A stretch of DNA of 64,000 nt from Poseidonia sp. (lineage in GTDB: Archaea > Thermoplasmatota > Poseidoniia > Poseidoniales > Poseidoniaceae): assembly GCA_965661285.1 (NCBI GenBank), contig CBFIDD010000003.1, positions 64,001 through 128,000 of the forward strand, in the 5' to 3' direction. Of the stretch, positions 550-38,609 are shown piece by piece (position 1 is the first letter of the stretch; every line of letters begins with the position of its first letter). The notes under the pieces are model-generated. The model saw nothing but the letters and a program-made list of their open reading frames with translations. It did not search any database and was not told the DNA's origin. The position numbers were made by a program, and so were the translations under genes.

Positions 550-3150
550 TCAATCATCCTCACCGCGCTCGCCCGCCAACGGTGCGTCATCGTCTCGTGG
601 AGCCGGGCTTGCTTTCTTGGCTGGAGTCCGCTTGAGTACGCGCGTGATCTCAACGTGAATCTTGTCGAGCAAAACCGGCCCCCACCCTCGTTTTGACAGC
701 AGAGCATCACGGTTCTTTCTCGACATGTTGAGGACATCGTTTGGTTCTCGCATCCCCAACGCCGCCAGTTCGCGAGCTCGCTGACGACCCACGTGTCGGA
801 TGTTCACAAGTTGAAGCAAGTCGGCTTTACAGCCGTGGCGAACTCGCTGTTGAAGGGTGCTTAATTGTTGAACCAAGGAAGCGACGACAGGGAGGTGTTC
901 CTCAGCAAAGACGTCGTCGGTCAGGAGGACATGTTGCGCGCCCGCCAACAACCATCCCATGAGGTCCACACGGTGATGCACATCGCCCGGAGAGACGTTG
1001 AGGGTGTCCTCAAGTTGGCGCAAGGTCGTCTCTTCCATCCACTCTTCGACCATCCATGCAGACTTGATGTTGCTCAACAGGGCCTCGGCATAACCCGGTT
1101 CAATGAGCAGTTCATCCTCGGTCGCATTCGCCTTGAGCCATGTGGGTGAATTGACCTCCATGTCGGCAGACTTGGCCCAGAGGGAGACGAAATCGGGCGT
1201 GGCCACGGCCAAGTGCAACAATCCGAAGTCCGTGAGCGGCGCATCTTTTCGCACTGCCCGGCGTACAGCCCGACGGAGTCCACGGCGCAGAATAGACGCC
1301 GAAAGGGGGTCGAGGTAGAGTTGTGTGACCCGTTCACCCATCGGGGTTGCTTCGTAGCGCATGTTTGGCCCGTCTTCTGCAGCGGGTTGGGCCCAACCGC
1401 CCGTGGAGGCGAGGGAGGTGGCTTTGGAGAACCCGATGGAGGGTGCGCCGTGGGCGCTTGATGGGCGCTTGGAGGGGGTCGGCTGGAGACCGCTTGGTGT
1501 CCACGATACGCCGTCGGTGGTTCGAGCGCTGGAGGCCCAGACGGGAACGGTGTCATCCCATGCTTCGTCATCGTCGACGGCGCGGTCCGCCCAATGCGAA
1601 GCGTAGTGTTCATCCAAACCGCATTTCCTGACGAAGCGCTCCTCAACCAGCCAGTCCAACATCGTGGTCAAGCGTTCTCGCAACTGAGATGGCGGCAGGG
1701 AGGCACCGAGAAATGTGGAGGAGAAGAAATGGTCAATCGTGCCCTTGTGAACCAGCCCGCCGGTGGCGATGCTGGCCAAAAGGTGCATGCGCAGGGCCGG
1801 CTCCGAGGCCAACTTTGAGGAAATGTCTTCGATGGGGCCGAAGAAATACCGGTCGGCGACAGCATCAGCAACCTCCCATCCATCGGTGCCTTTGCAGTAA
1901 ACCCATGCCTCCCCTTTGGTGTCGTATTTCGGTCGACCGGCCCGCCCGAGCATTTGTCGCACCTCCATAACCGGCAGGGGACGGCTCATGCCGTCGCCCC
2001 AGCGTTTCAAGTCCCTGACCAGCACGCGGCGAGCAGGGAGGTTCACACCAGCAGCAAGTGTTGGCGTGGCGGTGAGGGCGACCAGTAAACCCGATTTGAA
2101 CGCAGATTCGACGTCCTTTCGTTGAGCGTTGGTCAACCCTGCGTGGTGGAACCCCACGCCCGAAGAAAGACACGAAGACAATTGTTCGGCAAGGTTGGAT
2201 TGGCTCCGCCCGGTTAACTTCTCTGCCAGTGCCTTGAGTTTATCCAGCCGCTCCGGATTCTCCTTGACAAGGCGTTTTCGCACCCGCTTTGCCAAATTTT
2301 TCGCCTCGGATTGAGCACTCCGCCGAGTACCAACGAACAACAACACCTGCGCCTCTTGGTCCAACCCATCGCTGACCACGCTCCACACAGGATGGCTCTT
2401 CAGGCCCTCAAGGTCGCGCGGTGGGCTGAGAGGTTCGGTTTTGCCGTCTTCACTGGGGGATTGTATTTTTCTTGGCTCGACATGAAAGTCATGGAAGGTG
2501 GCATACTCCAACGCCACGGGTCGCCAATCCGACTGAATCAATTCAGCATCAAGCCACTGCGCCAATTTGGGGGAGTTTCCAACCGTTGCCGACAAGGCGA
2601 TGATTTGCGCATCCGGTTTGATGTGCCGAAGTCTCGTGAGGTTGATCTCGAGCGTCGGGCCGCGGGTAGCATCGTTCATCAGATGGAATTCATCCGCCAC
2701 GACACAACAGAGATCTGAAACAAGTTCGGCACGATGACGCAACAATGAATCCAATTTCTCGGACGTGCACACGAGAATGTTGCACTCATCGATGTTTTTC
2801 GCCTCGGCCGTTGCGTCACCAATGCCGAGACCAACCGAGAGCCCGCAGGCCGAAGCAATCGCTTTCAGGTCCTCGTATTTCTCCATCGCCAACGCCTTGA
2901 GGGGGACGATGTAGACGGCTTTTGAGCGGTCGTGGCCTTCCGAGAGTCGTTTCAACATTCCCATGTAAGCCAGCAAGGATTTCCCCGACGCTGTCGGTAT
3001 CGCCACCAAGGTGTTCCGTCCACTCAAAATGCTCGGTATCGCCTCGGCTTGTGGAGGGTGGAGGCGCTCAATGCCCCATTCATCGTTGAGAAACGTGAGG
3101 AACGGAGTTGGAAGGTCAAGGCTTGAAACGGCCCGATTGTCCACCTCCAT
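550..3150 (-). CDS. hel308: Hel308/Hjm Ski2-like SF2 DNA helicase
   Basis: Q motif LHPPQ, Walker A IPTASGKS, DEFH, SAT, TPTLAAGVNLPA, QMLGRAGRP, C-terminal HhH IRHVGRQRARELA. Confidence 0.93.
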   Translation of the reverse strand: MEVDNRAVSSLDLPTPFLTFLNDEWGIERLHPPQAEAIPSILSGRNTLVAIPTASGKSLLAYMGMLKRLSEGHDRSKAVYIVPLKALAMEKYEDLKAIASACGLSVGLGIGDATAEAKNIDECNILVCTSEKLDSLLRHRAELVSDLCCVVADEFHLMNDATRGPTLEINLTRLRHIKPDAQIIALSATVGNSPKLAQWLDAELIQSDWRPVALEYATFHDFHVEPRKIQSPSEDGKTEPLSPPRDLEGLKSHPVWSVVSDGLDQEAQVLLFVGTRRSAQSEAKNLAKRVRKRLVKENPERLDKLKALAEKLTGRSQSNLAEQLSSCLSSGVGFHHAGLTNAQRKDVESAFKSGLLVALTATPTLAAGVNLPARRVLVRDLKRWGDGMSRPLPVMEVRQMLGRAGRPKYDTKGEAWVYCKGTDGWEVADAVADRYFFGPIEDISSKLASEPALRMHLLASIATGGLVHKGTIDHFFSSTFLGASLPPSQLRERLTTMLDWLVEERFVRKCGLDEHYASHWADRAVDDDEAWDDTVPVWASSARTTDGVSWTPSGLQPTPSKRPSSAHGAPSIGFSKATSLASTGGWAQPAAEDGPNMRYEATPMGERVTQLYLDPLSASILRRGLRRAVRRAVRKDAPLTDFGLLHLAVATPDFVSLWAKSADMEVNSPTWLKANATEDELLIEPGYAEALLSNIKSAWMVEEWMEETTLRQLEDTLNVSPGDVHHRVDLMGWLLAGAQHVLLTDDVFAEEHLPVVASLVQQLSTLQQRVRHGCKADLLQLVNIRHVGRQRARELAALGMREPNDVLNMSRKNRDALLSKRGWGPVLLDKIHVEITRVLKRTPAKKASPAPRDDDAPLAGERGEDD

Positions 3151-3238
3151 ACCGCTTCATATTGGGCAGCGGTTCAAAAGGACAACGCCCTCGTTTGGTT
3201 GCCGACACCTACAAGTTCCACCGGTGAATGGTCGGGTC

Positions 3239-3847
3239 ATGAGCGACGAGCGAGATGCCATGGTCGAAGAACGACTTTCGGTCTTTGATGACGAGCCTGA
3301 CCTCAACGACTGGGTTGAGGTGATGTGTGGTGCAGCCATGGTTGTGCTCGGCATTTTTCATCTGGTCGAGCCAGGCAACCTCGTCGACCCCGACATCATG
3401 CGCTGGTTCGCAGCGGCCGTTGTCGCAGCAGGGGCAGTGTGGGCTGGGCACGGCCTCAAGGACATGGGTGTAAAGGAAGTTCGCCGCTCCATCGCCGTAC
3501 TGGACATGGTCAACAACGACCAAGGCGTCGACACCGGTTTGATTCGCGACGTCCTCCTCAACCAAGAGGCGTACAGAGAATTCCTCGTTCATGCTTACGA
3601 ATCGGCTTGGGAAGACGGCGTCATCACCGAAGCGGAATTGAAGGAGTTGAAATCGTTCCAAGAAGCTCTTGGTATCAGCGATGAGGAGGCAGCCGACCTC
3701 AACGTGAAGGCCGCCATCAAATCCGCCGCTGCTGACGGTAAAATCACCGATGAAGAAGCAAAATCCATCGAAAGGGCCGCCAAGGCTGCAAAGATGACCG
3801 AAGAAGAAACGGCGGAAGCTGTCAACAAAGAATTGGACAAGGCTTGA
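3239..3847 (+). CDS. Hypothetical 2-TM membrane protein with repeated TerB-like DGxIT..E helical motifs
   Basis: ATG at 3239 (MSDERD) preferred over the track start, which overlaps hel308; two hydrophobic helices, then AWEDGVITEAE and AAADGKITDEE. Confidence 0.7.
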   Translation: MSDERDAMVEERLSVFDDEPDLNDWVEVMCGAAMVVLGIFHLVEPGNLVDPDIMRWFAAAVVAAGAVWAGHGLKDMGVKEVRRSIAVLDMVNNDQGVDTGLIRDVLLNQEAYREFLVHAYESAWEDGVITEAELKELKSFQEALGISDEEAADLNVKAAIKSAAADGKITDEEAKSIERAAKAAKMTEEETAEAVNKELDKA

Positions 3848-30506: not shown

Positions 30507-31580
30507 ATGGCGGCCATCCAACTTCCCGAAGAAGCCGTGTTCAACCGACGAGTTGAAGCCATTTCAAATCGCATCGAAGGCATCACCAACAGCAACACCA
30601 TGGCTGGTTTGCTGAACTCCAATTTCAAAAAGTGGCTCTCCAATTCGGCGATGTCCCCCGTGAAACTGACCGAAGAACTCGATACCAACGCCGACCAGCG
30701 CATTTCAGGCGAAGAATTTGCGACATTGCTCGGAAAAATGACGGGAGAGCGCCCCCCTGAATGGGTGGTTGAAATCGTCTTCTCATTTGTCGAGGCCGAC
30801 CCGAACGACGGCATCCCCATCAACGACTGGATGGCGTTTCTCGCGGCGAGTGGTCTGGACATGCCCGAGGAATTGTTCGAGAAGAAAATTGAGGTCACGG
30901 GCAGCATCGCCATCCTTGACGAGGTGATCCTTGCAAGTCAGCCGTTCTCGGTGACCGTTTCCTTCAACACTGATGTTGTAGCGTATGAATTTAACGTCGT
31001 TGATGCCAACACGGGCAAGGCTCTAGACGAGATATTGACCCCAAATGCGGCCATGGACCGTCCCGATTTTGATGAATTCACGCTTGAAATCGACGAGCCT
31101 GCCGAGTATCTCGCCGAGCTCAAGCACCTTGGTGTCCGCTTGGACAGGCAAATGTTCACGATTTTACCGCTCCCTTCTCCTCAGAAGGAGGTTCATGAAG
31201 AACATCGTGAAGAGCCTGAACACGACATGCCCGAAGAAAACACCGATTCGCATGCCACGGTCGATGTTGATGACGGATTCCATGGCTTTGTCGCCACGAT
31301 TGAAACGGCAAAACTTCGCAGCGACGCCCAAGCCATCATCGCCGATGCACCGGCTTACTCCGTCAAGGCAACCATCACTGCGGTCTCGCGAACCTTGATT
31401 GGAGAAGGCGTGTATCGAAACGGCTTCACCGCGCACTGCACCGAAGACAGCGGCGCCAACTTCCGAGTCATGCTCAAGCCAACAGAAGATGCACCACAAC
31501 CCGGTGGGCGATTTGAGCAAAGCGTGGCGGTGCACGATTGGGACGTGGCCCTCAGGCAACTCATCTGTCGTGAGTTGTGA
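30507..31580 (+). CDS. Hypothetical protein with EF-hand-like loops
   Basis: DTNADQRISGEEF canonical-looking EF loop plus a second degenerate loop; acidic composition. Confidence 0.65.
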   Translation: MAAIQLPEEAVFNRRVEAISNRIEGITNSNTMAGLLNSNFKKWLSNSAMSPVKLTEELDTNADQRISGEEFATLLGKMTGERPPEWVVEIVFSFVEADPNDGIPINDWMAFLAASGLDMPEELFEKKIEVTGSIAILDEVILASQPFSVTVSFNTDVVAYEFNVVDANTGKALDEILTPNAAMDRPDFDEFTLEIDEPAEYLAELKHLGVRLDRQMFTILPLPSPQKEVHEEHREEPEHDMPEENTDSHATVDVDDGFHGFVATIETAKLRSDAQAIIADAPAYSVKATITAVSRTLIGEGVYRNGFTAHCTEDSGANFRVMLKPTEDAPQPGGRFEQSVAVHDWDVALRQLICREL

Positions 31581-33363: not shown

Positions 33364-33936
33364 ATGAGCGATGCCATGGACCAACTCAAGGCGAGTTTAC
33401 AGAACGCTCCAGTCATTTGGAAAGGCGATTATCCCTACTTCATTCATCCCGTGACCGATGGCGTCCCACGAATGGACCCCCGCGTTCTTCACGCCATCAC
33501 AGAACTCGCCGTCGAGCGCATTGATTGGGACAACATCGACGTGATTCTTGGTATCGAAGCGATGGGACTCCCGCTGACCGCACCGCTGAGCATGGCGACC
33601 GGCATTCCACTGGTCATCGCGCGAAAACGCTCTTACGGCCTTGATGGTGAAGTGGAAATCGATCAGTCCACCGGCTACTCAAAGGGTGCGATGTACCTCA
33701 ACGACTTGCATGAAGGTGAACGCATCGCCATCGTTGACGATGTCCTCTCAACGGGCGGCACGCTTGAAGCGGTCATCGAAGGCGTCAGCCGGTCGGGAGC
33801 AAAGGTTACTGAAATCATGGCTGTTGTCGAAAAAGGTGAGGGATTGGCGCACCTGCAAAACCTCCATCCAGACATTCGAATCCAATCCCTGGTTCGCTTG
33901 ACCATGGACGGCGATACCATCGTCTTGCTGGATTGA
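33364..33936 (+). CDS. hpt: Archaeal purine phosphoribosyltransferase (HGPRT/APRT family)
   Basis: YPYFIHPVTDG, EAMG, ARKR.Y, PRPP motif IVDDVLSTGGT. Confidence 0.88.
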   Translation: MSDAMDQLKASLQNAPVIWKGDYPYFIHPVTDGVPRMDPRVLHAITELAVERIDWDNIDVILGIEAMGLPLTAPLSMATGIPLVIARKRSYGLDGEVEIDQSTGYSKGAMYLNDLHEGERIAIVDDVLSTGGTLEAVIEGVSRSGAKVTEIMAVVEKGEGLAHLQNLHPDIRIQSLVRLTMDGDTIVLLD

Positions 33937-34052
33937 CACTCCTCGATGAGTTTCCCAACCTTTCCCCGGAGGCTGAAAGACCGATGGCAACTTCGGGAAC
34001 GTGTTAAGATGTGCAGGTCTCGTAGCCGTTGTTGGAAGATTTTGAACAATTC

Positions 34053-34080
34053 TTTATTACACAAAAGCCTAGGGTTTTGT
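34053..34080 (+). promoter_or_regulatory. TATA-like box plus 20-bp operator-like palindrome for the GAF-rhodopsin unit
   Basis: TTTATTA at 34053-34059 followed by ACAAAAGCCTAGGGTTTTGT (34061-34080; 9 of 10 arm positions pair), ending 1 bp before the ORF start. Confidence 0.55.
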
Positions 34081-34081
34081 T

Positions 34082-35092
34082 GTGAACTTTGACATCGTTA
34101 CGAACATTACCCAACAGGTGTGCCAAACCGATGTTGAAAACATCCGAGAAGTGTACCTCGAAGCCATTTGCGTTCTCGCCGAAGCCTCAACTTCCTTTAT
34201 CCTCAAACTCGACGGCGACGAAGCAAAGGTTGTCCGCTCAACCCTTCCGAGCCTGCTTCACGTGTCGCTGAAGAGCGACACCATTCGTCTGGAAAACGAA
34301 TCCTTTTGCTTGAATGAAGACGAGTTATTGGCGTGGTCAGCCCTTCCACCGGTCGGAGATGGACGCCTCAAATCGATCATCCTGCGCCGGTTCACGGTCG
34401 GCTCGGAGAGTTATGTCGCATGTGCGGCTTCATCTCAAACCGATGCCTTCACACAAGATGCATGCGAACAGTTCAACTGGACAGCGCCGCTTGGCGCCCA
34501 CACCATCCGCTTGATTCGAAATTCTGCAAAAAATGAGTTGGAGAAGCGAGCGCTCATGAAGGAAATGGATGCGCTCAAACAAGAATTGGCCGGTGCCCAA
34601 ACCGCAGCAGACCAACTTGAGGGGGCAAACGCCCAACTCTCCAATGCGCTGCTTGAGGTCTCCAGCGCCAAGGCCCAATCGAAAGCCCTTCTCCTCACGG
34701 TGGGCATCGGTATCATCCTCTTTGCCATCTCGGAATTCCGAATTGAGCCCTGGCTGGAAGCATCAGGCGCTTCTCCTTCGACCTTGGTTTACCAAAAAGT
34801 GCTCATCCTCGGGGGTTTGGTACCCATACAAGTGGTCGTGGAACGCTTCATCTCCTCAAAGGTAAATTCCAATGCTTCCGCGATTCGAATCGGTATGTAC
34901 GAAGAAGCACTCGGTGTACTTCTCGAAGACGGAGCGCTCACCGAGAAAGAAATACGGTGGCTCGAACTCTACCGTCGTCAACAAGGTATCCTGCGCGAGG
35001 AAGCACAAGCAGTTGAAGCCCGTTTACGGATGACCATGCTCAAAAAGAAGCGGGAAAACTTACAAAAAACGCCGGCCATTGCCACTGCATAG
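34082..35092 (+). CDS. GAF-like/coiled-coil/2-TM membrane protein, candidate rhodopsin partner
   Basis: N-terminal GAF-like pattern (LKSIIL...ACAASSQTDAFTQDACEQF...A....I), heptad coiled coil, TM hairpin, C-terminal EDGALTEKE helical domain; stop codon 5 bp before the opsin ORF. Confidence 0.65.
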   Translation: MNFDIVTNITQQVCQTDVENIREVYLEAICVLAEASTSFILKLDGDEAKVVRSTLPSLLHVSLKSDTIRLENESFCLNEDELLAWSALPPVGDGRLKSIILRRFTVGSESYVACAASSQTDAFTQDACEQFNWTAPLGAHTIRLIRNSAKNELEKRALMKEMDALKQELAGAQTAADQLEGANAQLSNALLEVSSAKAQSKALLLTVGIGIILFAISEFRIEPWLEASGASPSTLVYQKVLILGGLVPIQVVVERFISSKVNSNASAIRIGMYEEALGVLLEDGALTEKEIRWLELYRRQQGILREEAQAVEARLRMTMLKKKRENLQKTPAIATA

Positions 35093-35097
35093 AGGGC

Positions 35098-36120
35098 GTG
35101 AGAACGATGAAGCAACGCAAGATCAGCAATCCAGTCCTGCTATCAGCTACCCTGTTTCTCTTGACCCTCCTGCCAACCGTATCCGCCGCGGGTGGCTCAA
35201 CCTTCGAAAACGGTGATGCCATGAGCGCCCTTGAACGGGTGACGTACATCTCGTTCGTTGCCATCAGCCTGATGTTCATCGCTGCTGCGTTCTTCTTGTT
35301 CATGGAACGTAACGACGTCGCTCGGCGCCACCGCCCTGCTATCGGTATCGGCGTGATGATCGTCGGTATTGCCGGATTCCAGTATGCGCTGATGCAGGAT
35401 GTTTACATCGCTGATGGCTCCATACCCACCGACTTTCGGTACGCAGACTGGCTTACGACGGTTCCGCTGATGGCCGTCACCTTTGCTCTCCTTGCTGGTC
35501 GTGAGTCGTTCACGAACCACCGCTTGTTCAGCCTGCCCGGCATGTCGGTGCCCGGCATCATCATCGTTGGCTCGTTGTTCATGATGATCGGCGGCTACAT
35601 CGGCCAAGTAGAACTTGACCAAGCGCTCGCTGATGGCGTTGACCCCTCCGGGACACACTGGTTTTTCTTCGCTCAGGGAATGGTCGGCTACCTGACCGTC
35701 TTCCTCATCGTCGGCACCCCGTTTACGGGTTCTTACGGTATTGACGACACCAAAATCGCCGACGAATCCATTCGCCAAACCATGGGTCGGCTCCGACGTC
35801 TTGTCTTGTTTGGATGGCTCATCTATCCGGCGGGATACGTCATCGGCGCCCTCGAATTGGGGGGAGCGGGTGGAGCCGCCGCCATGATGTTGGTCTACAA
35901 CCTCGCGGACCTCGTCAACAAACTGGCCTTTGTCATCATCGTGCTCGTGGGCGCACGAGCCACCGAGGAAGCGCAAGCTGCCTACAGTTCCACCTTCACC
36001 TACGCACCAACAGCGACCAAGAGCGAGCGAGAAGAAGAAGAGGAACACCGAGACAGCCTGCGTGAACTGGCCGCTCTCGCTTCTGAGCTCGTCGATGAAG
36101 AGATCAGCGGTGAACTTTGA
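35098..36120 (+). CDS. Proteorhodopsin-family microbial rhodopsin, DTT motif, extended acidic C-tail
   Basis: Signal peptide, 7 TM; helix C RYADWLTTVPLMAVTF, helix F GWLIYPAGY, helix G YNLADLVNK with the retinal Lys (35920-35922). Start may be ATG 35107. Confidence 0.93.
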   Translation: MRTMKQRKISNPVLLSATLFLLTLLPTVSAAGGSTFENGDAMSALERVTYISFVAISLMFIAAAFFLFMERNDVARRHRPAIGIGVMIVGIAGFQYALMQDVYIADGSIPTDFRYADWLTTVPLMAVTFALLAGRESFTNHRLFSLPGMSVPGIIIVGSLFMMIGGYIGQVELDQALADGVDPSGTHWFFFAQGMVGYLTVFLIVGTPFTGSYGIDDTKIADESIRQTMGRLRRLVLFGWLIYPAGYVIGALELGGAGGAAAMMLVYNLADLVNKLAFVIIVLVGARATEEAQAAYSSTFTYAPTATKSEREEEEEHRDSLRELAALASELVDEEISGEL

Positions 36121-37403: not shown

Positions 37404-38609
37404 ATGGTGGACTATCTCGACCGAATCGGCGCTGGGCTCATCATCGCCCATCCAGAACGGTTGGATTTTGACTTCGTTCCCGAAGAACTGGTGGGAAGAG
37501 AGGACGTTCAACGTGAACTGGCCTCCAAATTCTCCAACGTGGCTTCCCCCGAAGGTGCGGCCAGGGCTGTCATCACCGGCCCGGTGGGCAGTGGAAAAAC
37601 CGTGCTCGCCAAGACGTTCTGCAGGGACCTTCAGCGCCACCTTTCGGGAAAACGTGAACTGAAAGTTGCGCACATCAACTGTCGAAACGCCTCCACCAGC
37701 ATGCGGGTCGCCCAACGCATCCTCCACCAGTTTGACCCCGGCCATCCCGACCGTGGCCTTTCACTTGGTGAGATGCTCCTCAGCCTTCGCAAAATGCTTC
37801 GACGTACATCCACGCACCTCATCGTCGTGTTGGACGAAGTGGACCACATGCTGCGTCGTTCTGGTGATGAGCTGCTGTATCAACTGCTTCGGATTGACGA
37901 AGACCAGGACGGCACGGGAACGCTATCGTTGATGCTCATCAGTCAAGAACAGGTACTCGACGTGCTCGAAACGGCCGTGCTGTCAAAGTTTGGCCAGTCC
38001 AATCATCTACGCATTAAGCCCTACACCGTTGACGGATTGGAAGCCATCGCTCGCCAGCGGGCAGAAATGGCACTGGTCCCGGGAACATGGAGCGATGCCA
38101 CCGTGCGCTTGCTGGCAGAGCGAGCGGCTGCCAGCGGTGATGCGCGGCGAGTGATTGAGTACCTCAGCAGCGCAGCAGAACGTTGTGAATTCCGTCAAGA
38201 CGGGCACACCGAGCAGGTCATCACCGTTGAGGACATTCACGCCATGAGCGACACCGTAGCGGTTGACACCAAATCACGTCTCGAAGTGGTGGACGACCTC
38301 CCCGCTCAAGGCATGCTGATTTTGCTCGCCATGTGCAGGCGCCTTCGAACCGAAGAAAGCGTGACGATGGGCGACGTTGAACGCCTCTACGCCGTGGTTT
38401 GCGAGGAGTACCAACAGAAGCCAAAAAGTCACACAACGCTTTGGAAATACGTCAAACAAATCGAACGAGAGGGTGTGATCAGCACTCGCGTGGCCACCGT
38501 GCCGGGCGGACGAGGACGTACGACCCACCTGAGCATGCCCCACTTTCTTCCAGCCGACATCGCAAGCAGGTTGGAATTGCTCTTGCCCAAGCAACTTCAG
38601 CGTCGCTGA
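37404..38609 (+). CDS. cdc6: Orc1/Cdc6 family replication initiator
   Basis: FVPEELVGRE, GPVGSGKT, HINC, VVLDEVD, GDARR, C-terminal wHTH with GRGRT. Confidence 0.9.
   Translation: MVDYLDRIGAGLIIAHPERLDFDFVPEELVGREDVQRELASKFSNVASPEGAARAVITGPVGSGKTVLAKTFCRDLQRHLSGKRELKVAHINCRNASTSMRVAQRILHQFDPGHPDRGLSLGEMLLSLRKMLRRTSTHLIVVLDEVDHMLRRSGDELLYQLLRIDEDQDGTGTLSLMLISQEQVLDVLETAVLSKFGQSNHLRIKPYTVDGLEAIARQRAEMALVPGTWSDATVRLLAERAAASGDARRVIEYLSSAAERCEFRQDGHTEQVITVEDIHAMSDTVAVDTKSRLEVVDDLPAQGMLILLAMCRRLRTEESVTMGDVERLYAVVCEEYQQKPKSHTTLWKYVKQIEREGVISTRVATVPGGRGRTTHLSMPHFLPADIASRLELLLPKQLQRR

Follow-up and report, generated by a model that had tools for sequence, protein, structure and literature searches.

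Does a two-gene locus of a planktonic archaeon encode a rhodopsin that signals instead of pumping, together with the protein that would carry its signal? The question is raised by a 64,000-nucleotide stretch of DNA from Poseidonia sp. (Poseidoniales, Poseidoniaceae), positions 64,001 to 128,000 of contig CBFIDD010000003.1 in assembly GCA_965661285.1, which is called the window here. The host genome (G000) is 1.98 Mb in size and 93% complete. An original prediction had proposed that two same-strand genes lying 5 bp apart between hpt and dph2 form a light-signaling pair, consisting of an opsin and an upstream partner, here called gene A. The two open reading frames (ORFs) were located as described, between neighbors that matched PF00156 and PF01866:

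34082..35092, + strand: gene A, 336 aa, with a GAF domain, a coiled coil, a hairpin of two transmembrane helices (2-TM hairpin), a helical C-domain and a basic tail; candidate transducer or regulator
35098..36120, + strand: opsin, 340 aa, of a DTT/DTC clade related to archaeal DTK (Lys-donor) rhodopsins

The spacer between them measures 5 bp (TAG agggc GTG) and would lengthen to 14 bp with the ATG at 35107 as the start codon of the opsin. Judged from sequence comparisons, the pair is a self-contained cassette of about 2.2 kb in Ca. Poseidoniaceae (MGIIa), and a functional, probably physical, coupling of the two products is very likely. That the pair is a new sensory-rhodopsin/transducer module is a tentative reading, which is weighed below against its alternatives.

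Linkage of Gene A and the Opsin

Full-length gene A was present in 7 of the 401 genomes examined across the order, with one additional fragment at a contig end, and all of these belonged to two genera of one family. Gene A was followed by a same-strand opsin of the same clade in all seven genomes (opsins 55–88% identical to that of the window), as well as in all six metagenome contigs; lack of such synteny had been named in the original prediction as evidence against a pair. A scan of species-representative genomes returned five loci, which were those of genomes already counted, and a scan of metagenome contigs returned six further loci; all 11 showed the same gene order, and several of the metagenome contigs were near-identical to the counted genomes and are not independent. 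Gene A did not occur away from this opsin in any of the 13 loci with flanking sequence. Among viral contigs, 12 stretches matched a pattern, and none of the 12 encoded relatives.

The opsin clade was sharply bounded, with 10 genomes at an identity of at least 58% and the next best sequence at 41%, and gene A was present in seven of these 10. The expectation that gene A would occur only with DTT-type opsins held at the level of the clade in 13 of 13 loci (with DTC in genus g5), but the reverse did not, since three of the 10 genomes (G078, G050, and G022) carried a clade opsin without gene A. Full-length gene A was not found in these three genomes, which are 88–92% complete. Their DTT opsins end 8–19 residues after helix G, whereas all 10 gene-A-linked opsins continue for 52–55 aa beyond helix G in an acidic tail with a net charge of −9 to −13, in agreement with the acidic cytoplasmic tail that had been predicted. 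The tail is also missing in the DTK paralog of the opsin.

From 35 opsin cores, a quick maximum-likelihood tree was built with the DTK sequences as root; it recovered the DTT/DTC clade as monophyletic with 100% support in the Shimodaira-Hasegawa-like approximate likelihood ratio test (SH-aLRT). The DTC group of genus g5, with its long tail and gene A, was sister to the group of genus g1, and the short-tail opsins were nested in g1 at two places, where the starred branches call for two or more changes. Most simply, an ancestral opsin with tail and partner would have been followed by at least two independent joint losses of both; some forks of the tree are weakly supported and the lineages are few.

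The pair was found in at least three genomic contexts, namely between the phosphoribosyltransferase (PRTase) gene and dph2 (four genomes), beside an H-NOX operon (the G188 lineage), and elsewhere in genus g5. Where the pair is missing from the first of these sites (five of five congeners), the PRTase gene directly adjoins dph2. The pair and the H-NOX operon are divergent neighbors in G188, and in G078 a short-tail opsin occupies that H-NOX-adjacent place without gene A. Within the shared context, identities were 69–87% for gene A, 79–88% for the opsin, 77–82% for the PRTase, 95–99% for ACAD, and 93–97% for Dph2. An apparent gene A–opsin fusion of 625 aa in G190 (L043:1404-1503, contig C46) was rejected because its junction is a run of N read as X.

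Coupling of the two products is supported by the synteny, by the cassette behavior, and by the joint loss of the opsin tail and gene A. It is also supported by conserved complementary charge, as the acidic opsin tail faces a basic gene A tail with a net charge of +2 to +7 in 21 of 21 family members. A complex prediction with alignments at 1:1 stoichiometry, covering opsin residues 30–340 and gene A residues 135–336 (without the GAF domain), gave scores of 0.27 and 0.03, against a mark of 0.32, and counts neither for nor against a complex. Of the proposed light-signaling pair, the tight functional unit is upheld by synteny, cassette behavior and co-loss; sensory function and binding are putative.

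Sequence Features of the Opsin

The opsin is a microbial type 1 rhodopsin (PF01036, E 1.3e-31, 110 bits at a cut-off of 24.6) and matched 54 rhodopsin sequences of the PDB. Its closest solved relatives were proteorhodopsins (PRs; E 4e-27), and the chains 9r21 and 9r23 of FArhodopsins were also among the matches (E 1e-16 to 1e-17). The following features were assigned:

35446..35481, + strand: helix C motif, from alignment with green PR (GPR), with D117 (acceptor), T121, V122, M125 (tuning) and T128 (donor position)
35920..35922, + strand: Schiff-base lysine K275 (in NLADLVNK), which aligns with GPR K231 and is invariant together with D271 and N274
35959..36117, + strand: cytoplasmic tail, residues 288–340, with an acidic run and a conserved amphipathic motif (SLRELAALASEL...EEISGEL)

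The residues D97, T101, L105, E108, D227, K231, and His75 of GPR correspond to D117, T121, M125, T128, D271, K275, and Q95 of the opsin. The acceptor D117 was invariant in the clade, so that a carboxylate is present at GPR position 97. On the other hand, the Glu or Lys donor at GPR position 108 was absent, being replaced by T in 10 and by C in 4 of 14 clade sequences, whereas K occupied this position in all 21 other rhodopsins compared. DTT was characteristic of genus g1 and DTC of genus g5, and the tuning position was M throughout. The PR-type His75 was likewise replaced, with Q95 invariant in the clade, whereas the DTK paralog keeps H. The claim that the opsin lacks pump residues therefore holds for the donor (T128) and for His75, with the acceptor kept. 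Other conserved positions included R114, W118, M162, G166, W240, Y243, P244, D271, and K275.

A second rhodopsin in the same genome, of 285 aa and 37% identical to the opsin, is of the DTK type with the His kept, and corresponds to the Lys-donor pumps ('SP' or 'Archaea clade B') reported from this order in the accessible parts of PMC6461757, PMC6336850, and PMC12137139. Compared with this paralog, the opsin has a conserved insertion of about 10 residues in the D-E loop and a 53-residue tail. Derivation from proteorhodopsin, as first proposed, needs to be narrowed, because the nearest relatives are the archaeal DTK rhodopsins ('Archaea clade B') of the same order and not the bacterial DTE PRs. 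A DTK-type rhodopsin was also present in 8 of the 10 genomes that carry a clade opsin. The expectation that carriers have a separate pumping PR was borne out in these eight but not in the other two, G084 and G190 of genus g5 (90% and 82% complete), in which the DTC opsin was the only rhodopsin found. Loop conservation was considered as a diagnostic between the DTT/DTC and DTK clades and was dropped, since conservation is higher throughout in the DTK clade (0.85 vs. 0.73).

Whether the opsin may bind retinal was judged from its pocket. In the FArhodopsin PsFAR, H84 (helix C) and E120 (helix D) block retinal, and substitution by V and G restores binding (bioRxiv 10.1101/2025.04.29.651185, as far as its accessible text describes). 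These positions read V122 and G166 in the opsin, in a register deduced from the helix C motif (H84 being in register with GPR V102), and both residues were invariant in the DTT/DTC clade. Because V122, G166, and the other mapped pocket residues are conserved, the opsin looks retinal-competent, unlike FArhodopsins. A structure prediction of the opsin from a 10-row alignment reached a mean pLDDT (predicted local distance difference test) of 47, which is too low to read the pocket or the tail. The retinal-forming dioxygenase Blh/Brp (PF15461) gave no match in five of five Poseidoniaceae genomes (G000, G084, G190, G040, and G074), a result that is uninformative as the controls were equally silent. 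At least three of these five genomes (G000, G084, and G190) encode rhodopsins.

Architecture and Conservation of Gene A

Gene A had been described as a protein with a GAF-like domain, a coiled coil, a TM hairpin, a helical C-domain and a basic tail, and this layout was recovered from an AlphaFold2 (AF2) model, Foldseek comparisons and the tail charge across the family:

34082..34474, + strand: GAF-fold domain, residues 1–131, from top Foldseek matches
34481..34681, + strand: long signaling helix or coiled coil entering TM1, residues 134–200
34682..34846, + strand: TM hairpin, residues 201–255, with a short acidic outer loop (SEFRIEPWLEASG) and the small-residue motifs GIGI and ILGG
34877..35020, + strand: helical C-domain, residues 266–313 (MYEE..LLEDGALTEKE..WLELYRRQQG...AQAVEA)
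35021..35089, + strand: basic C-terminal tail, residues 314–336

Profile searches of gene A against Pfam returned nothing at E<=0.1 except a faint coiled-coil signal, NCBIfam gave no significant match, and the best PDB sequence had an E of 0.82, with nothing meaningful among the hits. The 21 full-length homologs (47–98% identity) were all unnamed and without Pfam domains. The AF2 model, built from a 21-row alignment, had a mean pLDDT of 79 (85–90 in the N-domain) and contained an alpha/beta fold at residues 1–131, a continuous helix at 134–228, a helix at 232–281, and two C-terminal helices. The top Foldseek matches of the N-domain were GAF domains with a signaling helix behind them (6oza, 3k2n, and 3cit; E about 1e-5, probability 1.00), with template modeling scores of 0.58–0.62 when normalized to isolated GAF domains. 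According to the model, the N-domain of gene A has a GAF fold. Pfam GAF profiles did not match gene A itself; a relative of the same architecture, P0024, matched PF01590 GAF at 9.5e-5 (23.4 bits, cut-off 22.4). Residues 41–327 of P0024 align to gene A orthologs, with the BLASTP alignment beginning only at gene A residue 85.

In the family alignment, the GAF domain was the most divergent part of gene A, with K42, V51, R52, T54, P56, S57, L58, W85, and R95 invariant. Near-invariant regions were the juxtamembrane coiled coil (block DQLEGANAQLSNALLEVSSAKAQSKA), the hairpin (KALLLTVGIGIILFAISEFRIEPWLEASG...YQKVLILGGLVPIQVVVERF), and the C-domain (LLEDGALTEKE.RWLELYRRQQG), in which W293, Y297, R298, R299, Q300, Q301, and G302 were invariant. 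The mean pairwise identity was 0.83 in the hairpin and 0.59 over the whole protein. In the H-NOX-linked paralogs described below, the corresponding values were 0.49 and 0.50, from 10 such paralogs, as 10 of 23 loci passed the ORF filter. High conservation of the hairpin in gene A is expected if the hairpin must also fit a membrane partner.

No HAMP, MCP, kinase or cyclase domain was detected in gene A with Pfam and NCBIfam, as had been predicted, nor was an SPFH/flotillin signature found with Pfam, the Foldseek fold being GAF.

Gene A Family and H-NOX-Linked Paralogs

A 208-aa protein encoded elsewhere in the genome is paralogous to the C-terminal two-thirds of gene A (31% identity, E 7e-16). 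Its gene starts 15 bp after an H-NOX gene (PF07700, 4.7e-38; L004:790-1974, contig C3), about 86 kb downstream of the pair and outside the window. An H-NOX gene directly preceded the short paralog in 21 of 23 Poseidoniaceae loci that were fetched; of the two exceptions, one locus is cut by a contig end and the other holds a truncated copy. The truncated paralog (L029, contig C20 of G048) has an in-frame TAA and no H-NOX gene upstream, and is possibly a decaying copy. H-NOX-linked paralogs are also encoded in many genomes that lack this opsin. In three loci of genus g5 (L014, L031, and L032 of G040, G190, and G084, respectively) they are about 435 aa long owing to an N-terminal extension of about 230 residues, and low-complexity N-termini like these extensions were also seen in P0026–P0029. 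No description of H-NOX in Poseidoniales was found in the literature searched.

A deep profile search of 1.84 billion representatives returned only 33 relatives of gene A at E<=1e-3. Besides fragments and paralogs, these included proteins in which the coiled coil and hairpin follow a GAF domain (P0024), REC and PAS domains (P0044) or TPR arrays (P0041, P0047, P0050, and P0051), and P0035 has, by eye, a PAS-like N-terminus at this place. Several remote relatives terminate just after the hairpin. Within the class, the gene A family was found only in Poseidoniaceae (23 of 188 genomes), and in none of 166 and none of 43 genomes of the two other large families. A search of the ESM Atlas with gene A residues 135–336 returned only the short-paralog cluster, with a score of 0.81 that is under the counting level.

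Signaling Context of the Genome

The 93%-complete genome gave no match to the MCP domain PF00015, for which eight control genomes were positive. The genome encodes archaellin genes and three receiver-domain proteins. Because it lacks an MCP signaling domain, a route of the Che type is probably unavailable to the pair. The motif DG-x-IT-xx-E...LGI of the gene A C-domain is repeated in tandem in further proteins of this genome, with a weak similarity (E 5.7e-4 within one genome), and also in the receiver-domain repeat proteins P0043 and P0052 from the deep search, where the similarity is again weak. The C-domain itself had no significant match to TerB or other Pfam families; it is possibly a single TerB-like unit, which is offered as a lead only. 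The proteins with this motif, of the TerB-like repeat and receiver-domain kinds, are leads to possible partners.

Two of the repeat proteins were observed in the genome. One is a predicted membrane protein of 278 aa in the window (3011-3847, + strand) with C-terminal DG-x-IT-xx-E...LGI repeats and weak matches to DUF533 (2.1e-5) and TerB (0.0025). The other is a 397-aa protein (L075:1459-2652, − strand, contig C2) with weak helix-turn-helix matches (Crp-like, PadR) and three TerB-like repeats (PF05099, 1.9e-8), which could be DNA-binding and share a module with the gene A C-domain.

Proposed Function and Alternative Explanations

The favored, still tentative, explanation of the pair is a new light-signaling module of a sensory rhodopsin and its transducer. 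The opsin would bind retinal and act as a photoreceptor, with an origin among the Lys-donor (DTK, 'Archaea clade B') pumps of Poseidoniales, and the loss of the donor (T/C) together with the change of His75 to Gln would be expected to give a slow photocycle and poor pumping. It would sit in the membrane against the near-invariant 2-TM hairpin of gene A, as SRII does against HtrII, and its acidic tail would dock on cytoplasmic parts of gene A (the basic tail, the C-domain or the GAF domain). Light-driven helix movement might then pass through the hairpin to the long coiled coil and the C-domain or GAF domain and alter what these domains bind, with an output other than the Che pathway. Gene A would belong to a small family of coiled-coil/hairpin transducers that receive their input from a separate sensor (H-NOX or opsin) or from fused REC, PAS, GAF or TPR domains. 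This model draws on the observed architecture, motifs, synteny, co-loss and family relations, from which we infer binding, retinal binding, a slow photocycle, the direction of the signal and its output. A sensor and transducer are favored because the donor and the His are gone, because most carriers have a separate pump, and because the family pairs with an H-NOX sensor.

Several observations weigh against a sensory pair. The g5 genomes G084 and G190 have the DTC opsin as their only rhodopsin, which is unexpected if it yields no energy. Three genomes keep a DTT opsin without gene A, and the opsin would therefore seem useful on its own. The pump acceptor and counter-ion residues are intact, and donor-less pumps of the PR type (DTG type) are known. 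GAF is typically an input domain; with a GAF input and relatives that end after the hairpin, a flow toward the membrane, in which gene A regulates the opsin, fits equally well. Neither an output domain nor a downstream partner was identified for gene A in the searches described above. Furthermore, the pattern rests on perhaps 8–10 species of two genera, and kin are not independent.

In the main alternative, which is less probable, the opsin is a donor-less and slower light-driven pump or transporter and gene A is its regulator. Sensing a metabolite or second messenger with its GAF domain, gene A would switch the opsin on or off through its coiled coil and hairpin, with the opsin tail serving for docking or autoinhibition. 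Genomes G084 and G190 with this opsin type alone, the conservation of D117, D271, R114, and K275 as in pumps, and the three genomes that lost gene A and the tail but kept a seemingly useful opsin are consistent with this explanation. The usual role of GAF domains as inputs agrees with it as well, and the REC, PAS and TPR relatives that end at the coiled coil and hairpin suggest that the hairpin may be the output. However, T or C stands at the donor position and Gln in place of His75 throughout the clade, a DTK pump already exists in 8 of 10 carriers, and the H-NOX-linked paralogs in many genomes without the opsin imply that the family needs no such target. In addition, pumping was abolished when two motif residues of the working DTE-Q and DTE-L PRs were changed to DTT-T (Olson et al., PMC5864233, in its accessible text), which speaks for the sensory explanation and against a transporter.

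It is improbable that the pair is a retinal-free scaffold like that of FArhodopsins, in which the opsin and a membrane-anchored coiled-coil protein would serve light-independent membrane organization. FArhodopsins are DTT, DTL or DNI paralogs of PR that are retinal-free, adjacent to and co-transcribed with a membrane-scaffold gene, and present in genomes that also have a true PR (accessible parts of PMC10308929 and bioRxiv 10.1101/2025.04.29.651185), and their chains 9r21 and 9r23 were among the PDB matches of the opsin. On the other hand, the retinal-blocking positions H84 and E120 read V122 and G166 invariantly in the clade (in the deduced register), the opsin matches true PRs (E 4e-27) far better than FArhodopsins, and gene A has a GAF fold without an SPFH/flotillin signature. 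Mere inheritance of two unrelated adjacent genes is very improbable. A gene order shared by descent within only two genera would agree with it, but the pair is intact in at least three contexts and is present or absent as a unit, the spacer is only 5–14 bp, the tail and gene A appear to have been lost jointly at least twice, and gene A stood apart from the opsin in none of the 13 flanked loci.

Comparison with Known Systems

Opsin–transducer pairs (SR-Htr, ASR-ASRT, and Proteo-SR with Htr-like transducers) and the combination of a DTT PR paralog with a membrane protein (FArhodopsin-flotillin) are kinds of system that are already known. On the evidence of the sequences, the gene A–opsin pair differs from each of them in a defining feature, and its partner comes from an unnamed family.

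The pair resembles haloarchaeal SRII-HtrII (also SRI/HtrI) in that the opsin gene adjoins a gene for a 2-TM-hairpin protein with long cytoplasmic helices, the acceptor Asp is kept, the donor is non-carboxylate, and a pump-type paralog is present in the same genome. In contrast to HtrII, gene A is without HAMP and MCP domains feeding CheA/CheW, and its hairpin is central in the protein, following the GAF domain and coiled coil. The partner gene comes first, the opsin is of the PR/DTK and not the BR lineage, its donor position is T/C and not F/Y, and it has a long acidic tail. The pair shares with the Anabaena ASR-ASRT system an opsin with a non-carboxylate donor that is co-encoded with a non-Che transducer; ASRT, however, is a small soluble beta-sandwich protein, and ASR has Pro at the second counter-ion position, where the opsin keeps D271.

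Bacterial FArhodopsins (PMC10308929) and Proteo-SRs (PMC10519204), neither of which figured in the original prediction, are published precedents for non-pumping relatives of PR. Proteo-SRs are sensors of the PR lineage that are closest to DTK pumps, lack the PR-type His and are encoded beside a transducer (Saliminasab et al., 2023, PMC10519204, in its accessible part). The opsin shares the PR lineage, the nearness to DTK, the loss of the PR-type His and the adjacent partner gene. According to the same text, Proteo-SRs have the motif Y(T/C)M, with Tyr for the acceptor Asp, as well as Htr-like MCP transducers and Che genes, and are bacterial, whereas the opsin keeps the acceptor Asp (DTT/DTC), has a non-MCP partner and is archaeal. 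FArhodopsins (SAR11, HIMB59, and Pseudothioglobus) are similar in being DTT-type PR paralogs that coexist with a true pump and are tightly linked to a gene for a membrane-anchored protein; they differ, as their accessible descriptions go, in being retinal-free through the bulky H84 and E120 and in having a flotillin partner, in place of the V/G and the GAF/coiled-coil/hairpin partner of the archaeal pair.

The DTK pumps of 'Archaea clade B' in Poseidoniales and ESR of Exiguobacterium are further relatives, nearest within the order (33–41% identity). The 'Archaea clade B' pumps have in common with the opsin the leader, the long E-F loop and the Met at the tuning position, and are set apart by the replacement of Lys by T/C and of His75 by Gln in the opsin, its D-E insertion of about 10 residues, its acidic tail and its partner gene. 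The placement of the gene A paralog directly after an H-NOX gene resembles the usual sensor–target arrangement of bacterial H-NOX genes with a kinase or cyclase. Unlike bacterial H-NOX partners, the archaeal paralog has no kinase, cyclase or MCP domain and is a membrane protein of coiled coil, hairpin and C-domain.

Promoter and Neighboring Genes

The remaining features surround the pair:

33364-33936: PRTase, hpt-like, PF00156; upstream neighbor of the pair
34044..34059, + strand: transcription factor B recognition element (BRE)/TATA-like element (GAACAATTC TTTATTA), about 26 nt before the gene A start codon
36193-37314: Dph2, PF01866; downstream neighbor of the pair

The TTTATTA of the promoter-like element lies at 34053-34059. 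In an alignment of all seven loci, which represent three genomic contexts, the AACA..TTAT block was the sole conserved block upstream of gene A; its ACA...TTAT core was invariant across the seven upstream regions and lay 22–30 nt ahead of the start codon. This conservation agrees with the promoter that had been assigned to the pair, and suggests that gene A has its own promoter and a leaderless mRNA.

A Cdc6/Orc1 gene lies immediately after dph2 (37404-38609, + strand), and a replication origin may be near. A 357-aa ORF without a Pfam match (30507-31580, + strand) shows, by eye, an EF-hand-like loop (DTNADQRISGEEF) near residue 60.

Novelty and Implications

In the literature searched, neither a Thr/Cys-donor rhodopsin clade in Poseidoniales nor gene A as its partner was found described; the donor-residue supplements of Rinke et al., Tully, and Olson et al. 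may list such sequences. In their accessible parts, the surveys of Rinke et al. and Tully take all MGII (Marine Group II) rhodopsins as Glu/Lys-donor proton pumps. According to the accessible part of PMC10519204, Spudich (2006) and Sharma et al. (2006) suggested 'sensory proteorhodopsins' with other putative transducers, which could overlap with the present pair.

A rhodopsin with a compact non-Che partner could interest builders of optogenetic tools, and the small, self-contained pair (about 2.2 kb) is directly testable by co-expression. Rhodopsin research would gain a transducer whose architecture is unrelated to those of Htr/MCP, ASRT and flotillin. Judging from the H-NOX-linked paralog, archaea may use this transducer family for a second input besides light. 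In a broader and rather unlikely extension of this idea, proteins with a coiled coil, a TM hairpin and a C-domain would form an unrecognized class of Che-independent membrane transducers with separate (opsin or H-NOX) or fused (REC, PAS, GAF or TPR) inputs; the H-NOX input would then be gas or redox, and the pair would be the first photosensory system of MGII, a group with archaella but no MCP domain, possibly steering motility or metabolism by light along a new route. Marine Group II is among the most abundant archaea of surface oceans, and a donor-less opsin clade locked to a signaling-type partner would give this group a candidate light sensor.

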